Origin: Bacillota bacterium
Lineage (GTDB): Bacteria; Bacillota; Clostridia; Christensenellales; CAG-138
Reading direction: 5' to 3'
NCBI GenBank assembly: GCA_023395595.1
Contig: JAEWYO010000070.1
Location: forward strand, 36,093 to 100,092
Length of the DNA: 64,000 bases
This document shows positions 3,113 to 64,000 of this stretch, in pieces (the first letter of the stretch is position 1; every line of letters begins with the position of its first letter). The notes below the pieces were generated by a model that saw only the letters and a list, made by a program, of their open reading frames with translations, was not told the DNA's origin and did not search any database. Position numbers and translations under genes: made by a program.

Positions 3113-3634
3113 TTATTCGGCGCTTTTTTTCACGCGCTTGACAGGAACCAGCTTTTGCGAGGTCGTGTGTTCATCGTGCAGATCCAGACAGGCGGAAGCC
3201 AGCATCGCAGTGACATGCGGCAGATATTCCTTCGGGATGGCGCTGCCCGCATCGGCGATGTGCTTGAACCATGACTCATTGATGTAAAGAGAATATTTGA
3301 TATACTGCTCTTTTCCGTATTCTGTTGCCTGAATGATGATGTCCTTGCGATTGCCACTGATGTTGAATTTTTGCAGCAGGCCTATCTCGACAAGCGAATT
3401 TGCGAGCTTGGAAAACGTACTGTAAGAAATTCCGAGCCGATAGGCAATGCGGGACATGTTTTGCATTTCGTTTTCGTTTTCAAGAATATACTCGACCACC
3501 TGAATCTGCGCAAACGAGATGGCAATATCCGTGCCCAAGAACTGCTTCTTGTGCAACACGCTGGAGTATTCGTTGCTGAAGCGAATCAGCTTCTCGATGA
3601 TATCGCGATATTCGCCCATCCATTCTAGTTTCAT
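3113..3634 (-). CDS. MarR-family transcriptional regulator
   Basis: 173 aa. A winged-helix region (FAQIQVVEYILENENEMQNMSRIAYRLGISYSTFSKLANSLVEIGLLQK) is typical of MarR-like regulators. A GGAG RBS lies upstream of the ATG at 3634. Confidence 0.7.
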   Translation of the reverse strand: MKLEWMGEYRDIIEKLIRFSNEYSSVLHKKQFLGTDIAISFAQIQVVEYILENENEMQNMSRIAYRLGISYSTFSKLANSLVEIGLLQKFNISGNRKDIIIQATEYGKEQYIKYSLYINESWFKHIADAGSAIPKEYLPHVTAMLASACLDLHDEHTTSQKLVPVKRVKKSAE

Positions 3635-3826
3635 TGGTAACTCCTATCAACAACATGCAAGCGCCCCCCGCATTGGCAGGCGAAAGCGAGCAAGAAAAAA
3701 GTGTGCATCTGATATTCCTAAACGCATATAAAATTATAGCCCTTTTTGCGTGGATTGAAAAGACAAATCCGCACAAGCGCAAGCATGCAACAAATGAAAC
3801 ACAAATATTACATGTAGAATAAATTA

Positions 3827-16183: not shown

Positions 16184-17488
16184 GTGAGTTTTGCCGAGAG
16201 AGTGAAAGAAGTTTTACTGGAAAGAATACACGAGATGTCAGCCAACGCATGGTTGTTTGTGCAAAATCCAGAGAGCGATTTTACGAGAAAGAGAAAGCTG
16301 GATTTTGAAACGATGCTCCGGTGCCTGATTGCAATGGAGAGCGGAAGCCTGCAAAAAGAGCTGCTGGAGATGTTCCGATTTAACCCGGATACTGCAACGG
16401 TTTCCGCGTTTTATCAGCAGCGCAGAAAAATATTGCCGGAAGCATGGGAGTTTCTGCTTTGTGATTTTAACAAAGCCTTTGAAGTCAGCAAGACGTATCG
16501 CGGGTATCGTTTGCTCGTCTGCGATGGAACTTCCTTAAACATTGCACGAAACCCAGATGATCAAGAAAACTACTATCAGACCTCTTCCGACGCGAAGGGA
16601 TATAATCTTCTTCACCTGAATGCCATGTATGACTTGTGTGAAAGGCGATATATGGATGCCATTATCCAGCCCGGAAGAACGAATAACGAGTGCCGCGCAA
16701 TGGCGGATATGATCGACCGGAGCAATTCCGGGCACAAGACGATCTTCCTTGCGGATCGCGGGTACGAATCTTACAACATTTTTGCTCACGTCGAACAGCA
16801 CGAGATGTTTTATCTAATTCGGGTGAAGGATAGCCCCAGCAGGAGCATACTTTCCGGTCTTTCTTTGCCGCAGTCAGGGGAATTCGATACGAACGTACAT
16901 TTGACGCTGACTCGCAAGCAAACAAAACAAGCAAGAGCCTGCTCAGGGATCTATAGATTTCTCGCGAATAAAAGCACTTTTGACTATCTGAATCAAAACG
17001 AATTCTATCCGATCACCTTGCGAGTTGTGCGTTTCCGTCTGTCTGCCGACACCTATGAATGCGTGATCACTAATCTACCGAACGACGAATTCCCGCCGGA
17101 CGAACTCAAAAAGCTCTACGCAATGCGTTGGGGAATCGAGACATCTTTTCGTGAATTGAAATACGCAATCGGGTTGAGTTGCTTTCATTCAAAAAAGGTG
17201 GAGTATATCAAGCAAGAAATCTTTGCCCGGCTGGTTCTCTACAATTTCTGCGAGATCATCACAACCCATGTGGTGATTCAGCGAAAAGACTTCAAGTACG
17301 TCTACCAAATCAACTATACCATGGCGATCCATTTTTGCCGGTATTTCCTTCGTTGTACTCCTGATATATCTCCACCCAATGTTGAGTTGATGCTACACAA
17401 ACTTCTGCTTCCCGTCAGATCTGGGCGCAGCGACCCTCGAAAAGTCACGCCTAAGTCGGTTGTCAGCTTTTTGTATCGCGTAGCTTAA
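16184..17488 (+). CDS. IS4-family DDE transposase
   Basis: 434 aa, GTG start with an AAGGAGG RBS. The DDE candidates are LLVCDGTSLN, IFLADRGYESYN and YAMRWGIETSFRELK; the last shows the IS4 Y-x2-R-x3-E-x6-K signature. Confidence 0.9.
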   Translation: MSFAERVKEVLLERIHEMSANAWLFVQNPESDFTRKRKLDFETMLRCLIAMESGSLQKELLEMFRFNPDTATVSAFYQQRRKILPEAWEFLLCDFNKAFEVSKTYRGYRLLVCDGTSLNIARNPDDQENYYQTSSDAKGYNLLHLNAMYDLCERRYMDAIIQPGRTNNECRAMADMIDRSNSGHKTIFLADRGYESYNIFAHVEQHEMFYLIRVKDSPSRSILSGLSLPQSGEFDTNVHLTLTRKQTKQARACSGIYRFLANKSTFDYLNQNEFYPITLRVVRFRLSADTYECVITNLPNDEFPPDELKKLYAMRWGIETSFRELKYAIGLSCFHSKKVEYIKQEIFARLVLYNFCEIITTHVVIQRKDFKYVYQINYTMAIHFCRYFLRCTPDISPPNVELMLHKLLLPVRSGRSDPRKVTPKSVVSFLYRVA

Positions 17489-17728: not shown

Positions 17729-19228
17729 TTAACCCATCCGGACGCGAATCATATTCCAGGAGAATTTGGGCAGGGTGATTTCAAGCATGTCGCCATCGAG
17801 CCGGTATTTGGTGAGGTGAACGGGGCGAATCGGCGCGGCATCCGCTGTGTTGATGCTTTCCGGCGCAAATCCGTTGAGCGAAACAAATTCTAGAATGGAT
17901 GGAGTATCTGCTTGAGCGAACGAAATCTTGCAGTCCTGATCCTGCGATATGCTGCGGTTGACCAGGAACAGGACAACTTCGTTCTTGTCGGTGTTGTGTG
18001 TTGCCGCGCAGTCAACGGTTGGAATTGCGTCTCCTACGCTGCATGCATACGTTGGCGAATCGACCGAAACTTGCAGCGAAGTGCCGCGTCCGTGCTGCGA
18101 GGCATACAGAAACGGGTAATAGATGGTCTGCACCCATGCGCGCCCGCCCGGTTCGGTCATGATTGGCGCGATGGTGTTGACCAGCTGTGCAAGGCAGGCG
18201 ATCTTTACAACGTCCGCGCTTCGTAAGAGTGTGTTTAGCATGCAACCGACCAGCAGCGCATCCGCGCCATCATAGCGCTCCTCCTCAATGGCGCGCGGAA
18301 ATGTCCATTTCTCAGGAATAACGCCCTCTTTTTGAAAATGATACCAGACGTTCCATTCGTCAAACGAAAGAAATACATCGCGATCACTGTTCCTGCTGGC
18401 TTTTTCTGCGCGGCAAATCTCCGCAACCTCGCGAATGAACCCTTCCATCTCCACGCTTCGCGCAAGAAAAGAGGGAACATCGCCATCGTTGTTTTGATAA
18501 TACTGATGCAGGGAGAGGTAGTCGATATAGGGGAAACAGTGCTTGAGCACGGTCTGCTCCCAAACCCCGAAAGTTGGCATGCTGCGAAAGGAGCTTCCGC
18601 AGGCGACCAGCTCAATCGAAGGATCGCGCCACTTCATCATCTTTGCGGTTTCGCAGGCGGCCCTGCTGTATTCTTCCGCTGTCTTGGCGCAGATTTGCCA
18701 GGGACCATCCATCTCGTTGCCGAGGCACCAGAGATTGACGCCGTATGGTTCTGCGTGCCCGTTTGCACGTCGCAGGTCGGCATAATGGGTCGGCAGATCG
18801 CCGTTTACATAATCCAGCAGGTCGCATGCGCTCTGAGGCGTGCCGGTACCGAGATTGACGCCGAGCATGGCTTGTGTACCGAGGCGTTCGCACCACTGCA
18901 GGAATTCATCCGTGCCGACCTGATTTGGCTCCAGCGCAAACCAGGCAAGATCGGGCCGCACGGGGCGCTGCTCCTTTGGACCGATTCCGTCCTGCCAACG
19001 GTAGCCGGAGAGGAAGTTTCCACCCGGATAGCGGATGCAACTCAGTTGCAGCGGGCGCACGAGTTCCATCACGTCCTGACGGAATCCGAACGGGTCTGCG
19101 GTCGGGTGCTCGGGTTCGTAGATGCCCGTATAGACCGAGCGTCCCATATGTTCGATAAACGAGCTGTAGATGCGCGGGTCAATTTCGCTGATTTGTTTTT
19201 GCAGATCAATCGCGATGTTCGTTGTCAT
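17729..19228 (-). CDS. abfA: GH51 alpha-L-arabinofuranosidase
   Basis: The 556-aa ORF in the track is over-extended. GGAGGATGG followed by ATG 19228 gives 499 aa starting MTTNIAIDLQ. Motifs IYSSFIEHMGRSVY, RYPGGNF and LGNEMDGPWQ fit GH51. The start overlaps the upstream LacI stop (ATGA). Confidence 0.9.
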   Translation of the reverse strand: MTTNIAIDLQKQISEIDPRIYSSFIEHMGRSVYTGIYEPEHPTADPFGFRQDVMELVRPLQLSCIRYPGGNFLSGYRWQDGIGPKEQRPVRPDLAWFALEPNQVGTDEFLQWCERLGTQAMLGVNLGTGTPQSACDLLDYVNGDLPTHYADLRRANGHAEPYGVNLWCLGNEMDGPWQICAKTAEEYSRAACETAKMMKWRDPSIELVACGSSFRSMPTFGVWEQTVLKHCFPYIDYLSLHQYYQNNDGDVPSFLARSVEMEGFIREVAEICRAEKASRNSDRDVFLSFDEWNVWYHFQKEGVIPEKWTFPRAIEEERYDGADALLVGCMLNTLLRSADVVKIACLAQLVNTIAPIMTEPGGRAWVQTIYYPFLYASQHGRGTSLQVSVDSPTYACSVGDAIPTVDCAATHNTDKNEVVLFLVNRSISQDQDCKISFAQADTPSILEFVSLNGFAPESINTADAAPIRPVHLTKYRLDGDMLEITLPKFSWNMIRVRMG

Positions 19229-20268
19229 GCCATCCTCCGCGTGCCGAGCGTGGATTCGCGCTCGATGATCGAGCACTCCAGCAGGATCTCGTGTTCGGTG
19301 GGCATGCCTTTGCCGGAGAGGATGTCCAGCATGATGTGCGCGGCTTTTTGCCCGATCTCGAACAGCGGCAATGCAACGGTTGAGAGCTGTGGCCGGCACA
19401 CGGTCGAGATCTCGCGATTATCAAACCCGATCAACAAAACATCCTTGCCGACCTCGATCCCGTTTGCGTTGCAATAGTCCAGAACACCCGTCGCCATCAG
19501 GTCGTTGTGCGCAAAGATTGCCGTGGTTCCGTTTTTGATCAATTGCTCGCCGAGTGCATATCCGCAGTCGCGACTCCAGTCGCCGACCATGGTCAAGGCG
19601 GGGTTGTAAGGCACCCCGTGCGTGAAGAGTGCTTCTTGATGCCCGCGTGTGCGATTGTAGGAATGGCTGCTATCGGCTGGGCCGGAGATCATGCCGATCG
19701 TGCGCCCGCCGGCGCGAATCAACCGTTCGGTTGCCTCAAAGGCGGCCTTTTTGTCGTCGTAGATCACGGAAGGAATGGAGGTGTCCAGGCTGGTGCAGTA
19801 GGCACAGACGAACTGCGGCTCCGAATGCTCAGACAACGAGACGACAACGTGGCTGTGGCATCCAATATAGATGATGCCATCCACCTGCTTGCTGAGCATT
19901 TCATCGACAACACCGTGGACGAGCTCTGTACTCTGGGCCAAATCCTTCGGGCCGTTGCCATAGCGTTTGAAGAAACGCAGATTTCCTAATATGTAGTGAT
20001 AACCGGCTTCGTCGCATGCGGCTGCGATGCCGTCCACGATCTCCGGTGCGTTGAATACGGTCAAATCCTCTGTCACAATGCCCAGGGTTTGGCTGCGTCC
20101 GCTTTTCAGGTAACGGGCATTGAGGTTGGGGCGGTAGTTCAGCTCGCGGGCGGCATCCATCACCAACTGCCGGGTTTCGGCGTTGACGCCATACTTTCCG
20201 TTGAGCACCTTGCTGACGGTCGCAATGGATACACCGGTGCGTTCCGAAATCTCCCGAATCGTTGCCAT
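19225..20268 (-). CDS. LacI-family transcriptional repressor
   Basis: Re-called start at ATG 20268 (347 aa). The N-terminal HTH is MATIREISERTGVSIATVSKVLNG, followed by a periplasmic-binding-fold sugar domain. Confidence 0.85.
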   Translation of the reverse strand: MATIREISERTGVSIATVSKVLNGKYGVNAETRQLVMDAARELNYRPNLNARYLKSGRSQTLGIVTEDLTVFNAPEIVDGIAAACDEAGYHYILGNLRFFKRYGNGPKDLAQSTELVHGVVDEMLSKQVDGIIYIGCHSHVVVSLSEHSEPQFVCAYCTSLDTSIPSVIYDDKKAAFEATERLIRAGGRTIGMISGPADSSHSYNRTRGHQEALFTHGVPYNPALTMVGDWSRDCGYALGEQLIKNGTTAIFAHNDLMATGVLDYCNANGIEVGKDVLLIGFDNREISTVCRPQLSTVALPLFEIGQKAAHIMLDILSGKGMPTEHEILLECSIIERESTLGTRRMA

Positions 20269-20321
20269 AGTCGTTACTCTTTCTGCTTTTGTTGCGTGCG
20301 ATCTTGCTTTTCCTGTCTTTA

Positions 20322-20335
20322 TGTTAAACGTTATA
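20322..20335. promoter_or_regulatory. candidate LacI-family operator O1 (TGTTAAACGTTATA)
   Basis: It shares the CG-centred core TAAACGTT with two other sites. It overlaps a minus-strand -10-like TAACAT (20321-20326) of a TTGATT-16-TAACAT candidate promoter for the LacI gene. Confidence 0.5.
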
Positions 20336-20431
20336 TGCATAAAAATCAAGTGAAATCGCGGATTTTCTGATCCATCGCGTGTTCGATCCGCAGAATTTTT
20401 GATGGTTTTCAAAAGAATTCCTCAAAAACTC

Positions 20432-20461
20432 TTTACAAACGCATTTCTGTTGCAGTATAGT
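20432..20461 (+). promoter_or_regulatory. candidate sigma-A promoter for the GH127 gene
   Basis: TTTACA (20432-20437), an 18-nt spacer, then TATAGT (20456-20461). Confidence 0.5.
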
Positions 20462-20473
20462 AGCGATATCAAA

Positions 20474-20487
20474 GAAAACGTTTAACA
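20474..20487. promoter_or_regulatory. candidate LacI-family operator O2 (reverse complement TGTTAAACGTTTTC)
   Basis: It has the same half-site TGTTAAAC as O1. It lies just downstream of the predicted -10, around +6 to +20. Confidence 0.5.
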
Positions 20488-20535: not shown

Positions 20536-20549
20536 GTAAACGTTTAGCA
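20536..20549. promoter_or_regulatory. candidate LacI-family operator O3 (reverse complement TGCTAAACGTTTAC)
   Basis: It contains the perfect palindrome TAAACGTTTA (20537-20546). It sits directly upstream of the GH127 RBS AAGGAAG. Confidence 0.5.
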
Positions 20550-20568: not shown

Positions 20569-22563
20569 ATGGCAAACAAACTGCGTCCATCTTCGATCCG
20601 GCAGATTGAGATCACAGATCAACTGTTTGGGCGGTATGTCTCCATTCTGGCGGAATCGATCCTACCGTATCAGTGGAATGCACTCAACGGTGGTGTCGAT
20701 ATTTCGGACACGGATCAATGGGAGGCACTCAACGGACGGGTAACGGACGAACGGGTCTCCAGCTGCATCGATAACTTTCGCATCGCAGCCGGAGAGAAGC
20801 AGGGCAAGCACTCCGGCGCCGTGTTTCAGGATACCGATGCGTACAAGTGGCTCGAAGCCGCAGCGTACTGCATCGAGATTGGAAAAGGTGCGTCGTTGCG
20901 GGAGCGCGCAGACGAGCTGATCGAGCTGATCAGCCGCGCGCAGCAGCCCGACGGATATCTTAACACGTTCTTTACCATTGCAGACCCCGCTCACCGCTGG
21001 AAAAACCTCGCGGAAGGGCACGAGCTCTATTGCGCGGGGCATCTGATTGAAGCCGCGGTGGCATACTATCACGCAACCGGAACCGACCGGCTGTTGGAGG
21101 TTGGCAAACGATTTGCGGACTTGATCGCGACCGTGTTCGGACCGGAAGAGGGCAAGTGCAAGGGGTATCCCGGGCATCAGGAGATCGAGCTCGCACTGGT
21201 GAAGCTCTATCGCGTGACCCGCGAGAGCCGCTATCTCGAACTCGCGAAGCACTTCTTAAGCGAGCGCGGCAAGGCGCCGAACTATCTCATCGCCGAGATG
21301 GAGACGACCAAAGACTTCCGCCTGTTTCCGGAGTTTTCGCATTACGATGCGGAATATGCGCAGACGCACCTGCCGCCAATCGAGCAGACCACGGCGGAAG
21401 GGCACGCGGTTCGCGCGGTCTATATGTATTCCGCGATGGCGGATCTTGCCAAGGAATGCGACGACGAGAAAATGAAGCAGGCTTGCAAGACGCTCTGGGA
21501 AAACATCACCACCAAACGCATGTATATCACGGGCGGCATCGGCTCTTCGGGATTGCTAGAGCGCTTTACGGTGGATTATGATCTGCCCAATGATCGCATG
21601 TATTGTGAATCCTGCGCTTCGATCGGGCTGATGATGTTCGGTCAGCGCATGAACCTGCTCACGCGGGATGCTTCGTATTACGATGTTGTCGAGCGTGCGC
21701 TCTGCAATACCGTGCTCGCCGGTATTTCCGCCGCGGGGGATCGATATTTCTACGTCAATCCGTTGGAAGTTTGGCCGGATAACTGCAAGTCCTCCACGTC
21801 GATGTCGCATGTGAAGCCCGTCCGTCAGGAGTGGTTCTCCTGCGCTTGCTGCCCGCCGAATATTGCGCGGACACTTGCGTCCGTCGGGCAGTATATCTAT
21901 GCAGAGGACGAAAAATCCGTCTATATCAACCAATTTATCTCATCTAAACTGAAGACTTCGATAGCAGGGACGGATGTCTCGCTCTGCCTCGATTCCAGCT
22001 ACATGGCAGATGGTTGCATCCGTATTTCGGTTGACAGTGCTTCCGCTCATCCGTTCACAGTGCGCGTGCGCATTCCGCATTTCTTGAAGAACCCGGTGTT
22101 CCTACTGGATCAAACCGAAATTACGCCGGTGATTGAGAACGGATATGCAGTGCTGGCTGTTTCCCGCGCAGGGGAGCAGACCTTCACCCTTCGTGGCCTT
22201 GTCGAACCGGAATTCTTTGTGGCAAACGATCAGGTGCGCGCCGACATCGGCAAACTTGCGCTGATGTTCGGGCCTTATGTCTATTGCCTTGAGGAGATGG
22301 ACAACGGGAAGAACTTGGCGAACGTATTTGTGCAGCCGCGAAATGCGATTGAGAAGAAGCCTCCTGTGGAAGGAATGCCCGGCGCGCTGCCGACACTGGC
22401 ATTCACCGGAGAGCGTCTCCTGCGCACGACGGAGCAAACCGGCGCGCTCTATGCGTCACCGAGTTTTGAGAAGACGCAGGCGGCATTGACCGCAATTCCT
22501 TACTGCCTCTGGTGCAATCGCGAACCCGGAGAAATGCTGGTTTGGATGAAGGCAAGCCTCTAA
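20569..22563 (+). CDS. GH127 beta-L-arabinofuranosidase (DUF1680/HypBA1-like)
   Basis: 664 aa. The family-typical Cys cluster WFSCACCPPNIARTLASVGQY and the ELYCAGHLIEAAVAYY segment are present. Confidence 0.85.
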   Translation: MANKLRPSSIRQIEITDQLFGRYVSILAESILPYQWNALNGGVDISDTDQWEALNGRVTDERVSSCIDNFRIAAGEKQGKHSGAVFQDTDAYKWLEAAAYCIEIGKGASLRERADELIELISRAQQPDGYLNTFFTIADPAHRWKNLAEGHELYCAGHLIEAAVAYYHATGTDRLLEVGKRFADLIATVFGPEEGKCKGYPGHQEIELALVKLYRVTRESRYLELAKHFLSERGKAPNYLIAEMETTKDFRLFPEFSHYDAEYAQTHLPPIEQTTAEGHAVRAVYMYSAMADLAKECDDEKMKQACKTLWENITTKRMYITGGIGSSGLLERFTVDYDLPNDRMYCESCASIGLMMFGQRMNLLTRDASYYDVVERALCNTVLAGISAAGDRYFYVNPLEVWPDNCKSSTSMSHVKPVRQEWFSCACCPPNIARTLASVGQYIYAEDEKSVYINQFISSKLKTSIAGTDVSLCLDSSYMADGCIRISVDSASAHPFTVRVRIPHFLKNPVFLLDQTEITPVIENGYAVLAVSRAGEQTFTLRGLVEPEFFVANDQVRADIGKLALMFGPYVYCLEEMDNGKNLANVFVQPRNAIEKKPPVEGMPGALPTLAFTGERLLRTTEQTGALYASPSFEKTQAALTAIPYCLWCNREPGEMLVWMKASL

Positions 22564-22629
22564 TTCTAACAAAGAGCTGGCAAACACGTCTGAAAAAATC
22601 TAAAACTCTCTAGTATCTACTTATCATTT

Positions 22630-22896
22630 GAAAGTTGCTGTAATGATCCGATGTCTGCGGCGCAAGCCGCAGGCACACCCGAAGATTCTATCTCTCACTT
22701 TGATCAGCAGACGGAAGTTGCTGTAATGCTCCGATGTCTGCGGCGTAAGCCGCAGCCACCCCGAAGATTCTATCTCTCGCTTTGATCAGCAGACGGAAGT
22801 TGCTGTAATGCTCCGATGTCTGCGGCGTAAGCCGCAGTCTCGCCCAAAGATTCGATCTCTCTGGTTTATATCAGCAGCAGGAAGTTGCTGTATAAT
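22630..22896 (+). repeat. tandem array of 82-85 bp units (3 full copies plus 1 truncated), each with a GNRA-capped hairpin
   Basis: The units are 22630-22712, 22713-22794 and 22795-22879, with a partial unit from 22880. The hairpins CTGCGGC-G(C/T)AA-GCCGCAG lie at 22655-22672, 22738-22755 and 22820-22837. The last partial unit ends in TGTATAAT (22889-22896). Confidence 0.9.
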
Positions 22897-22923
22897 AAAT
22901 AAATACAAGGAAGGGAATTGGAA

Positions 22924-24330
22924 ATGAAAACCAAGAAGTTACTTGCTCTGCTGCTTTGTGCCATGATGGTTTCCGCCCTGTTCGCATGCGCACAACCCGC
23001 AGCACCTGCAACCGAAGAACCCGCCACCGAGGCAACCGAAGCCCCCGCGGCCGAGGCAACCGAAGCGGCACCCGCACCTGCAGAGAAGATTACACTCACC
23101 TTCTCGCTCTGGGGTGATCCTGCGGAGCAGGAAACGACGCAGAAAGCGCTCGACGTTTACAACAACTCGCAGGATAAAGTATACGTCAAAGCACTGCAAA
23201 TCGGACGCGATGAGTATAACGAAAAGCTCCAGACTATGGCGACCGCTGGCGAAATGCCGGATTGCGGCATGGTAGCGGAAGACACCGTGATCGCGTGGGC
23301 AAGAGACGGCCTGCTGTCCGATGTGGACATCTATGCCGGTCAGAAAAACCTGCCGCTGGACTACCTTGCATTCAAGTACAACGGCAAGACCGTTGCCTAT
23401 TCCTCTGCAAACGAAGTCCTCGCTCTGTGGTACAACAAAGCGATGTTCGACGCAGCAGGCATCCCCTATCCGCCGACCACGCTGGACAAGGCTTGGACGT
23501 GGGATCAGTTCGTTGAGGTTGCCAAGCAGTTGACGATTGACGCCAACGGCAAGCATCCGGGCGACGCCGGTTTCAACAAGGACAACATTGTCCAGTACGG
23601 CGCGTATGTCAACCAGTACACCTGGCAGCTCGAAGCATGGGCGCTCAGCAATGGCGGCAGCTTCTTCTCGGCGGATGGCAAATCTGTCGTGTTTGACGAC
23701 GCAGCAATCGAAGGCATCCAGAAGGTGTTCGACCTGCATCTCGTGGACAACGTCGCTCCGCTGAATGACGGCACGCAGGACAACGGTTTTGCCAGCTCTC
23801 TGGGCGCAGGCAACGTTGCCATGTGCACCGAAGGCCAGTGGGCAACCGGATTCCGTTCCGGCCTGGAAGGCATTGACTACGGCGTTGCCGTTCTGCCCTA
23901 CATGAAGGAAAAAGTGACCATCGCGACGGGCGGCCCGACGGGCGTGTTCGCAACGTCGAAATATCCGCAGGAAGCGGCCGAATTCCTCAGATGGTACAAC
24001 AGCGAAGAAAACAACATCGGCACGATCATGGCGGGCTGGTGGATGCCCACAAAGCAAAACTGGTACACCGATGAAACGCTGCTCAAGTCCTGGGTGGACG
24101 ATTGCGAACTCCGCGCAGCGCTCCCGGCAGATGCCTACAAGACCGCGATTGTTGACGTCGCACTCAACACCGAAGTCACGCATCAGACCGGCTGGTACTA
24201 TACGCCGAATACGTTTGAAGTTCTCGTGAAGACCCTGCAGCCGGCGCTCGTGGAAGCGATTAACGGCAGCAAGACGGCCAAAGAAGTCATCGATTCCGTC
24301 CGGGATGCCATGCAGGCACAACTCGGCTGA
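22924..24330 (+). CDS. CUT1-family ABC transporter sugar-binding lipoprotein
   Basis: AAGGAAGGGA RBS followed by ATG 22924. The signal peptide is MKTKKLLALLLCAMMVSALFAC (lipobox), followed by a Pro/Ala/Glu/Thr linker. The body is typical of extracellular solute-binding family 1. Confidence 0.85.
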   Translation: MKTKKLLALLLCAMMVSALFACAQPAAPATEEPATEATEAPAAEATEAAPAPAEKITLTFSLWGDPAEQETTQKALDVYNNSQDKVYVKALQIGRDEYNEKLQTMATAGEMPDCGMVAEDTVIAWARDGLLSDVDIYAGQKNLPLDYLAFKYNGKTVAYSSANEVLALWYNKAMFDAAGIPYPPTTLDKAWTWDQFVEVAKQLTIDANGKHPGDAGFNKDNIVQYGAYVNQYTWQLEAWALSNGGSFFSADGKSVVFDDAAIEGIQKVFDLHLVDNVAPLNDGTQDNGFASSLGAGNVAMCTEGQWATGFRSGLEGIDYGVAVLPYMKEKVTIATGGPTGVFATSKYPQEAAEFLRWYNSEENNIGTIMAGWWMPTKQNWYTDETLLKSWVDDCELRAALPADAYKTAIVDVALNTEVTHQTGWYYTPNTFEVLVKTLQPALVEAINGSKTAKEVIDSVRDAMQAQLG

Positions 24331-62914: not shown

Positions 62915-63107
62915 AGAAGGGATTCGCACCTTTCCATGAAAAGTATAGCATATTTCCGTTCCAGGAATTTGAAATCGAAAAAAGTAGCACCGGAATCCGA
63001 AAAATACGGAATATCCAATCGCGGACCGGGATGACATAATGACAGCGAGGGGTGCAAAGACACCTAACTTCTACAAAGCACATCTAAAATATCGAGGAGG
63101 AACAGTC

Positions 63108-64000
63108 ATGAAAAAGTGGACAGCCATGCTGCTGATGCTGGTGATGCTGGCAAGCACGCTCGTAGGATGCGCGCCTGCTGCAACAACACCCGCAGCCGAA
63201 GACACAGCAGCGCCCGCAGCCGCGGCAACCGAAGCCCCGGCAACGGAAGCTCCGGCAAAAGACGTCAATCTCTCTTTCTTCACCGGAAAAGTGGAGACGA
63301 TCGATCTTCTGGATCAGATCATCGCCGATTACAACGCGCAGTCCAACGGTATCATCGCCGAGCAGGAATACCAGCAGGACGCGAGCAACATCATCAAGAT
63401 CAAGTTCGCTTCCGACGCTGTGCCGGACGTCATGACCACCTATGAGCAGGAGTTTGTTGACCAGGGCAAGTATCTGGCGCTGAACGACATGAGTCAGTGG
63501 TGGGATCGCCTGATTCCGTCCATGAAGGAAAGCTGCACGGATCTTGCCAGCGGCAACCAGTACCGTGTCTGCACCAACATGACCATGGCGGGCTTCTTCT
63601 ATAACAAGCAGATGTTCGCGGATCTCGGCCTGACCCCCGCGACCACGTGGGAAGGGTTTGTAGCAAACCTTGAAGCCATCAAGGCGGCTTATCCCGACGT
63701 TGACCCGTGGTTCATCTTCGGCGAAGCGTGGCACCTCGGCCACCTCATCGAGTTCTTCCCGCAGGGCTACATCAAGGCCAAGTACGGCGCAACCGCTGCA
63801 AAGCAGGCCTTCCTGAAGAACGACTCCTCGATCCTCCAGTGGGGCAATCCGGACGGCGCGATGGCGACGTTTGCAAAAGATCTCGTCGATCTACAGCAAA
63901 AAGGCCTCATCAATGCGGACGTGCTGACCGCGACCAGCGACAACTGCATCGACGCGTTTGTCACCGGCAAGGCTGCGATGTTCTCCAACGGCATGTGGTG
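63108..64000 (+). CDS. ABC transporter sugar-binding lipoprotein (5' part; runs off the window)
   Basis: This gene is absent from the ORF track because no stop is reached. GAGGAGG RBS followed by ATG 63108. The signal peptide is MKKWTAMLLMLVMLASTLVGC (lipobox), followed by an Ala/Pro/Thr linker. The frame stays open to position 64000, with a family-1 SBP-like sequence. Confidence 0.8.
   Translation, partial: MKKWTAMLLMLVMLASTLVGCAPAATTPAAEDTAAPAAAATEAPATEAPAKDVNLSFFTGKVETIDLLDQIIADYNAQSNGIIAEQEYQQDASNIIKIKFASDAVPDVMTTYEQEFVDQGKYLALNDMSQWWDRLIPSMKESCTDLASGNQYRVCTNMTMAGFFYNKQMFADLGLTPATTWEGFVANLEAIKAAYPDVDPWFIFGEAWHLGHLIEFFPQGYIKAKYGATAAKQAFLKNDSSILQWGNPDGAMATFAKDLVDLQQKGLINADVLTATSDNCIDAFVTGKAAMFSNGMW

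Follow-up and report, generated by a model that had tools for sequence, protein, structure and literature searches.

In the 64,000-nt stretch of contig JAEWYO010000070.1 analyzed here (hereafter the window), which comes from a bacterium of the Christensenellales, a tandem array of 82-85-bp units spanning 22630-22892 lies between a GH127 gene and an ATP-binding cassette (ABC) transporter operon that contains the gene for a solute-binding protein (SBP). Comparison with related loci shows that the array is a locus-specific tandem amplification of a two-hairpin piece of the spacer that runs from the GH127 stop codon to the SBP ribosome-binding site, and that its stems have been kept in a manner that fits RNA of the sense strand. 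[quoted passage not shown]

When the 64 kb were searched with Tandem Repeats Finder, one array was reported at 22632-22892 (period 82, 3.1 copies, 91% matches, score 406), and it is by far the strongest repeat of the whole window. A first-pass annotation of this DNA, made from the letters and open reading frames (ORFs), had described three head-to-tail copies followed by a truncated fourth, and both the repeat search and an alignment of the copies bear this out. Its finer description holds within the window as well: copies 2 and 3 are the same over their first 43 nt (copies 1 and 2 are 92% identical), all three units contain the perfect 7-bp stem CTGCGGC/GCCGCAG capped by GCAA or GTAA, and the sequence differences between copies begin directly 3′ of the hairpin stem. 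The degenerate partial copy that had been placed upstream of the array is real but weak. A covariance model built from 17 units and run with filters off on the window gives 57.6 bits for the match at 22616-22683, 69.9 bits at 22699-22766, and 68.6 bits at 22781-22848, and a counterpart of the degraded upstream box precedes the first unit in relatives. The 20-nt hairpin core has five matches in the window, all of them inside the array, compared with 0.01 expected by chance.

Each unit is composed of the left ~27 nt of a conserved SBP-proximal box, which forms a hairpin that we call hairpin 1′, a GC-rich hairpin with a stem of 7-12 bp and an arbitrary loop (hairpin B), and a variable linker. The complete box occurs at the SBP-proximal end of the array, where it is predicted to fold into hairpin 1 as UUAUAuCAGCAGC-AGGAA-GUUGCUGUAUAA, with ~10 nt left between it and the SBP ribosome-binding site downstream. 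This terminal box ends in TGTATAAT (22889-22896), which 27 nt separate from the ATG at 22924. The box, TTTATATCAGCrGCAGGAAGTTGCTGTATAAT, is near-invariant in all close relatives (SBP >=86% identical), whether they carry an array or none, and the differences among them are an A/G exchange at one position and a 2-nt-shorter variant in the loci L004, L005, and L157.

The boundary of the repeat falls inside this box. After GTTGCTGT, the last copy continues into ATAAT, and the internal copies continue into GATGCTCC or AATGCTCC and then into the GC-rich hairpin. A unit therefore terminates in the left ~27 nt of the box (TTTATATCAGCrGCAGGAAGTTGCTGT), TATAAT is reached only by the last copy, and the 3′ end of unit 3 is the complete left arm of the terminal box. 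The array can be written as n modules of box-left, hairpin B, and linker plus one complete box, and relatives indeed carry n hairpin-B modules and n+1 boxes. The units share at their end 27 nt taken from the resident box, which is as expected from tandem duplication. Among the three possibilities raised in the first-pass annotation, a duplicated promoter or leader module comes closest to this anatomy, since the unit repeats the left ~27 nt of the box that stands before the SBP ribosome-binding site.

How the hairpins vary between lineages points to RNA. Hairpin statistics were gathered from 17 units of seven lineages, which are related by descent, so that the counts given here are not independent. 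In hairpin B, 94.1% of cells are paired, compared with <=59% for the whole two-hairpin structure in slid-register controls; of its 11 pairs, 10 are retained by >=88% of units and six are invariant. Its loop is free to change, with more than 10 sequences of 3-6 nt (those of relatives include TTAC, CTGC, TTC, CTAT, ATGC, ATCGA, CTAA, TAAC, CAAC, and GCA), and the linker differs by lineage. The conserved GNRA tetraloop that the first reading of the sequence had emphasized is thus a feature of the window only. A second proposal, that GCAGAC at the end of one unit pairs alternatively with GTCTGC in the next, is correct for the window, where the two are complementary, but does not generalize: GCAGAC is lineage specific, and other lineages have GCAGCA or GCGGCA in its place.

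The three variable positions in the hairpin B stem all lie in the 3′ arm and are A/G opposite U, a change that keeps the pair in the + strand but would put C·A into the - strand. Pairing is accordingly lower when the - strand is read, at 79.1% against 94.1% for hairpin B and at 71.1% against 86.1% for hairpin 1. The + strand also folds better in 15 of the 17 units (mean -29.7 versus -22.6 kcal/mol, p = 6e-4), the two exceptions being units of the window. Wobble-only changes in the stem, together with the better folding of the + strand, favor a structure formed in sense-strand RNA. As in SRPS operons, the array hairpins are sense-strand stem-loops between co-oriented cistrons that have been kept as structure.

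Hairpin 1 tells a similar story over a longer evolutionary distance. Across 15 distinct box types from more distant orthologs (TTTATAC...GTATAAT), the inner arms contain 45 Watson-Crick pairs, nine G·U pairs, no A·C, and six other mismatches. Compensatory changes in the arms include the replacement of CAAC/GTTG by CGG/CCG and by CAC/GTG, and the loop ranges from 5 to 14 nt. Orthologs that are more distant have unlike stems in the same place (CAACGCAT/ATGCGTTG, AAAACGCC/GGCGTTTT, TTAAACAC/GTGTTTAA, and TTAAGCTC/GAGCTTAA), 10-25 nt upstream of the ribosome-binding site and usually followed by an A-rich stretch. When 47 distinct upstream regions were folded, the + strand was the more stable one in 35 and the - strand in 10 (p = 2.7e-5), with mean z-scores against shuffled sequences of -1.6 for the + strand and -0.9 for the - strand. 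In two of the distant orthologs, L085 and L100, the hairpin is preceded by a consensus promoter (TTGACA-17-TATAAT in L100) and a LacI-type operator, and it is therefore part of a transcribed 5′ untranslated region there. From these comparisons, hairpin 1 is an old feature of the SBP gene leader. For the proposal that the array is a REP-like (repetitive extragenic palindromic) intercistronic RNA element, the substitutions seen on the + strand and the hairpins of the orthologs agree with the RNA mode of action; the REP-like label is not supported, as no copy of the unit was found other than upstream of this gene in the sequences scanned.

If the favored reading is correct, the units would be transcribed on the + strand, beginning either at the GH127 promoter that LacI controls or at a site inside the spacer, and the region would belong to a message that extends from GH127 into SBP and is regulated by LacI. 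The promoter-like site that precedes the GH127 gene is the likely start of the array-bearing transcript. The units would act in cis as structure, serving neither as coding sequence nor as promoter. The SBP message would then be bracketed, by the array and hairpin 1 upstream and by a long GC-rich stem-loop downstream, and these hairpins may determine how stable it is, and how it is processed, compared with the neighboring cistrons. Such a layout has been described for ABC operons of Clostridia (PMC9045158) and for SRPS operons (PMC4423207). The number of units, which ranges from 0 to 3, could tune the strength of the barrier.

Several points weigh against this reading. Nine lineages have zero units, and half of the close relatives are unit-free. 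The window units are the weakest folders of the set (-21 to -24.5 kcal/mol), and neither strand is favored in them. No two-sided pair change was found in hairpin B among the 17 units, whose shared descent was mentioned above, so that the support consists of conservation and one-sided wobble. Little variation is seen over ~32 nt at the 5′ end of the unit, where there are invariant blocks of 11 nt and 10 nt (GGAAGTTGCTG and TGTCTGCGGC), a degree of constraint beyond what a barrier made of structure alone would need. Further, transcription across the array is something that we infer. The outer arms of the box are invariably TTTATA and TATAAT, most often 17 apart, which would also suit a promoter, and if transcription starts at a promoter in the terminal box, the array is untranscribed unless there is read-through from GH127.

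This last point leads to the alternative that the units act as DNA, each repeating the upstream part of the SBP promoter/operator box, so that RNA polymerase or a transcription factor would bind a row of additional activator or decoy sites upstream of the sole complete promoter (TATAAT at 22891-22896), a possibility that we regard as unlikely, if far from negligible. The terminal box doubles as a promoter-like TTTATA-N20-TATAAT. Its hexamers show no covariation, are 16-17 nt apart at the mode in more distant orthologs, and stand at a distance from the start codon that is typical of promoters; the interval from box to ATG is near-invariant although the SBP genes are 12-20% apart in DNA, and units of 81-85 bp would hold the boxes roughly in helical phase. 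However, the spacing is 20 in the clade of the window and varies from 14 to 20 overall, and a promoter consensus scan of 22300-23100 returned none, despite the perfect TATAAT with TTTATA 20 bp away. The internal boxes are never TATAAT: they carry TGTAAT, TGTGAT, TGGGAC, or similar at the -10 place and lack the key A at position 2. Nine G·U and no A·C changes in the arms, with loops of 5-14 nt, are what would be expected of RNA and not of the site of a dimeric DNA-binding protein, and a DNA platform would leave both the conservation of hairpin B with free loops and the + strand bias unexplained.

The regulator encoded nearby does not rescue the DNA alternative. The first-pass annotation had suggested that the array might be a binding platform for the adjacent LacI-family protein, the only regulator nearby, which now appears unlikely, since this protein has a different operator, AAACGTTT, which was found only outside the units, and never inside them, in the window and in relatives. 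Both LacI-type operators of the window lie upstream of GH127, each just downstream of a -10-like hexamer. In L008, L011, L144, and L149, operators of this type (GAAAACGTTTC and variants) lie shortly before the first unit, and in L064 the motif lies upstream of the box. Another ABC operon carries a similar leader. At positions 1-58 of L004, a paralogous box and leader (TTTTATCAGCGGCAGGAAGCAGCTGGTATAGAAAATAAGAACAAGGAGAGAAGAAATG; ~75% identity over 55 nt) precede a second SBP gene (24% protein identity), which heads a second ABC operon inserted directly upstream of the orthologous SBP gene, where other loci have GH127. At least two ABC operons therefore have this type of leader, and its sharing suggests a common cis-regulatory element, which would be compatible with action as DNA.

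To follow the array through relatives, orthologous loci were found with the SBP protein as the query, in species-representative genomes, in metagenomes, and through exact-protein look-ups, within the Christensenellaceae. There are three units in the window/L001, L011/L147/148, L029, and L149; two in L005, L008, and L151-153; at least two in L002, where the contig is cut; one in L144-146; and none in L003, L004, L006, L010, L063, L064/65, L157/158, L161, and L162. Copy number thus varies from 0 to 3 between close relatives, an outcome that had been listed in advance, for the case that no phenotype goes with it, as one that would speak against a function, and the distribution of arrays is patchy on the SBP gene tree. 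The most striking case is L002, whose SBP DNA is 99.5% identical to that of the window and whose array is ~73% identical (L002 1-215 versus 22630-22923), with units of the L008 type. This mismatch suggests fast turnover or recombination with a breakpoint at or near the terminal box. The arrays of L002 and L008 are orthologous unit by unit, with 95% identity between their second units.

Since the arrays also occur in the complete-chromosome assemblies OY762962.1 and OW818651.1, and since units can be matched one by one between L002 and L008, the arrays are real and inherited. Short-read assemblies tend to break or gap inside them, as seen from the run of Ns at ~2763-2870 of L001 and from the contig ends in L002, L066, L143, L150, and L155. 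As a result, public metagenome-assembled genomes may under-report both the presence and the copy number of the array. In one relative, L005, the spacer between GH127 and SBP (~3620-3770) contains two copies of another GC-rich palindrome (GCGGGCGGATAATATCCGCCC / GGGGCGGATATTATCCGCCCGC), which may be a separate REP-like element of that genome.

Given this turnover, it is also conceivable that the array is a neutral minisatellite, a functionless product of slippage or unequal crossover that persists through repeat instability. The scatter of 0, 1, 2, or 3 copies among close relatives, the lineages that have none, and the discordance between L002 and the window would all be explained in this way, as would the partial degradation of the window units, in which hairpin 1′ is weaker and the stems are shorter. 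We nonetheless consider a neutral origin and persistence distinctly unlikely. Arrays are maintained in lineages whose SBP genes are 12-17% apart in DNA, and the units of one array can be up to 21% diverged with their stems intact. All loop and linker columns vary, whereas the stem positions that vary are wobble-neutral, and even the diverged unit type of L151 retains hairpin B.

A bolder version of the RNA reading would join copy-number variation to function. The array might be an RNA "rheostat," in which each unit is a module where an RNA-binding regulator or ribosomes dock specifically (through the GGA hairpin, the Shine-Dalgarno-AUG element, and a clamp hairpin) and in which unequal crossing-over resets the expression of the arabino-oligosaccharide importer stepwise, so that an 82-nt minisatellite would provide heritable post-transcriptional tuning. 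We find this very doubtful.

We judge it highly unlikely that the units are a sequence-specific leader, made up either of sites for an RNA-binding factor of the CsrA type (two-site or sponge) or of upstream ORFs whose translation melts hairpin B. Such a leader would account for the invariant 5′ blocks and for the presence of AGGAAG-N8-ATG in 17 of 21 units, the diverged L151 type included. In the window, this Shine-Dalgarno-like AGGAAG, which falls within the hairpin 1′ loop or beside it, is followed 8 nt on by an ATG in each unit (22643-22645, 22726-22728, and 22808-22810), opening the short frames MIRCLRRK... and MLRCLRRK.... Where units are 83 nt long, the ATG of the next unit overlaps the stop codon (TAATG or TGATG), and where they are 81 nt long, the frame continues through successive units. 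However, the ATG is lost in units a and c of L011 (ACG) and in both units of L005 (ATC), no peptide is conserved, the frame changes with the lengths of the unit and the loop, and codons 2-3 vary (LL, IR, LR, PG, PV). A coding unit as such was rejected on similar grounds, since lengths are 78-85 nt and in most lineages not a multiple of 3, the peptides of the short frames are unconserved, and four of 21 units have lost the ATG.

For a factor of the CsrA type, the relevant features are the AGGAA in the loop of hairpin 1, three GGA motifs at the SBP ribosome-binding region, and a GGA-hiding helix, CAGGA/UCCUG, that would form as an alternative to hairpin 1′. This helix is paired in 87.7% of cells and shows one double change, from A-U to C-G, but we set it aside because its covariation comes entirely from the lineage of the window. 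The loop GGA is confined to the close clade, and distant orthologs have unrelated loops. No match to csrA was found in the sequence examined, a result that is uninformative because the whole genome was not covered.

The array is also no member of the repeat and RNA families that its hairpins might bring to mind. Using the covariance model, we found no copy of the unit in the 64-kb window outside the array and none in 100 related loci (584 kb) other than the arrays upstream of SBP genes, which gives no evidence for the dispersed repeat that had been considered at the outset. An exact 39-mer had no match in species-representative genomes, and blastn against plasmids and phages gave no match to the unit. 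A degenerate 29-mer likewise had none in the JGI metagenome collection, which is weak evidence, since that collection evidently lacks the newer array-bearing samples (L144-146). A dispersed REP-like or MITE-like (miniature inverted-repeat transposable element) repeat was rejected because no copy lay outside the SBP-upstream site in the sequences scanned, which include no complete array-bearing genome; in addition, the units are arranged head to tail and lack the terminal inverted repeats of a MITE.

At gathering thresholds, Rfam has no match in the whole window. A permissive scan returned Twister-P5 (RF02684) on units 2 and 3 at 17.2 bits (E = 0.55, gathering 37.6), a match that was absent from permissive scans of the L029 and L149 arrays. 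The UAAUGC that this match requires is UGAUGC in most relatives, with loss of the cleavage-site A, and the loops are unrelated; moreover, the AAGCC that would have to be free as a loop (P4, AAGC) to form the two pseudoknots is buried in the perfect 7-bp stem in the window. In the same kind of scan, the terminal box and leader of L029 (3915-3963) and L149 (573-621) match cow-rumen-4 RNA below threshold (17-18 bits, gathering 48.5, E = 2-3), which is probably noise. An intrinsic terminator can be set aside as well. In agreement with the earlier remark that no U-tract follows the hairpins, a terminator scan of 22564-22923 found no GC-rich stem with a U-tract on either strand, and the sequence 3′ of the stems is C/A-rich. 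Although palindromic GC-rich hairpins in an intergenic region and the weak Twister-P5 match might suggest a dispersed REP- or MITE-like repeat or a twister-type self-cleaving ribozyme, occurrence at a single locus in our scans and the failure of relatives to keep the defining twister nucleotides make either one scarcely credible. From these searches, we conclude that the array belongs to neither the REP/BIME (bacterial interspersed mosaic element), MITE, twister, nor intrinsic-terminator class and to no other Rfam family. A search of the literature found no account specific to this array.

The features of the locus are collected in the table. Pfam assignments agree with the flanking genes named in the first-pass annotation, GH127 on one side and an ABC-transporter operon on the other. 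On the + strand, the SBP gene is followed by two permease genes and then by a DUF624 gene, and a SpoIIP gene lies near the locus. Together with the relatives that were found, this gene assigns the window to the Christensenellaceae (Clostridia).

Table. Features of the GH127-SBP region and of the array, in window coordinates
Feature	Position	Strand	Description
LacI-family gene	19225-20412	-	divergent from GH127
Promoter-like site	20432-20461	+	TTTACA-18-TATAGT, upstream of GH127; 10/12 matches in consensus scan
LacI-type operator	20475-20485		AAAACGTTTAA; read from sequence
LacI-type operator	20537-20546		TAAACGTTTA; read from sequence
GH127 beta-L-arabinofuranosidase gene	20569-22563	+	Pfam PF07944, E = 5.6e-106; upstream cistron
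Unrepeated spacer	22564-22629	+	ends in degraded box copy, CTACTTATCATTTGAAAGTTGCTG, running into unit 1
Unit 1	22630-22712	+	83 nt; hairpin B stem 22652-22661 / 22666-22675, loop GCAA
Unit 2	22713-22794	+	82 nt; hairpin B core stem 22738-22744 / 22749-22755, loop GTAA
Unit 3	22795-22879	+	85 nt; hairpin B core stem 22820-22826 / 22831-22837, loop GTAA
Terminal box (hairpin 1)	22865-22896	+	TTTATATCAGCAGC-AGGAA-GTTGCTGTATAAT; 12 bp, one bulge (minimum-free-energy fold)
Start of fourth unit	22880-22892	+	13 nt
Shine-Dalgarno region	22907-22915	+	AAGGAAGGG; sequence reading
SBP start codon	22924-22926	+	ATG (ORF)
SBP gene (solute-binding lipoprotein)	22924-24330	+	Pfam PF01547 (SBP_bac_1), E = 3.6e-26
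Long GC-rich stem-loop	24369-24409	+	17 pairs (11 G-C), weak T-tract; between SBP stop codon and first permease gene; terminator-like scan

Other repeats and a mobile element were seen in the window. A DDE-family transposase gene (PF01609) at 16184-17488 lies between the genes for UDP-GlcNAc 2-epimerase and an alpha-L-arabinofuranosidase, at the edge of the arabinan-utilization cluster. There are two in-frame tandem repeats, one at 23008-23066 (24 nt x 2.5), which encodes a Pro/Ala/Glu/Thr-rich linker after the signal peptide of the SBP lipoprotein, and one at 63214-63258 (15 nt x 3), which lies in a coding-size ORF on the - strand (63084-63743).

If the RNA reading is true, the locus would offer a natural tandem amplification of a structured leader or intercistronic module that is present in 0-3 copies among close relatives. 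Isogenic-like comparisons could then gauge the effect of each module on message stability and on polysaccharide-uptake output in the Christensenellaceae of guts and digesters. The array opens no new class of mechanism and, if neutral, is simply a minisatellite. In either case, there is a practical consequence: at this locus, short-read assemblies are interrupted or gapped by the array.

How does the array compare with known systems? Enterobacterial REP/BIME elements, such as those of malE-malF, are dispersed in hundreds of copies per genome, follow a family consensus, and stabilize the upstream message against 3′ exonucleases. The array shares with them its intergenic position, its palindromic units, and the possibility of tandem arrangement, but its unit came up at a single locus and is unrelated to REPs in sequence. 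The aprE and ermC leaders of Bacillus subtilis each have a single 5′-proximal stabilizing stem-loop at a mapped 5′ end. Terminal hairpin 1 is similar in lying close upstream of a ribosome-binding site, where it could block 5′-to-3′ decay by RNase J; the array differs in that its module is reiterated.

Closer in operon type are the ABC-importer operons of cellulolytic Clostridia, in which internal, U-poor, GC-rich stem-loop terminators lie downstream of SBP genes (Wu et al. 2022, PMC9045158). The stem-loop that follows the SBP gene in the window is of exactly that kind, and hairpin B is also GC-rich and U-poor. However, the array is upstream of the SBP gene, and its hairpins are shorter (7-12 bp) and have no U-rich tail.

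The nearest parallel is with the SRPS operons of Clostridia, in which stem-loops set the relative abundance of neighboring messages (Xu et al. 2015, PMC4423207; PMC8219983). In both, stable stem-loops lie between cistrons of a polysaccharide-utilization operon in an organism of the class Clostridia, structure is kept over sequence, a U-tract is not needed, and the proposed role concerns relative message abundance. The array departs from SRPS in lying upstream of the highly expressed gene, here that for the SBP, instead of at its 3′ end. It is also a tandem module, with up to three units and seven hairpins, whose copy number varies between close relatives. Its unusual features are therefore the tandem amplification of a leader module and the variation of that module from 0 to 3 copies between close relatives.

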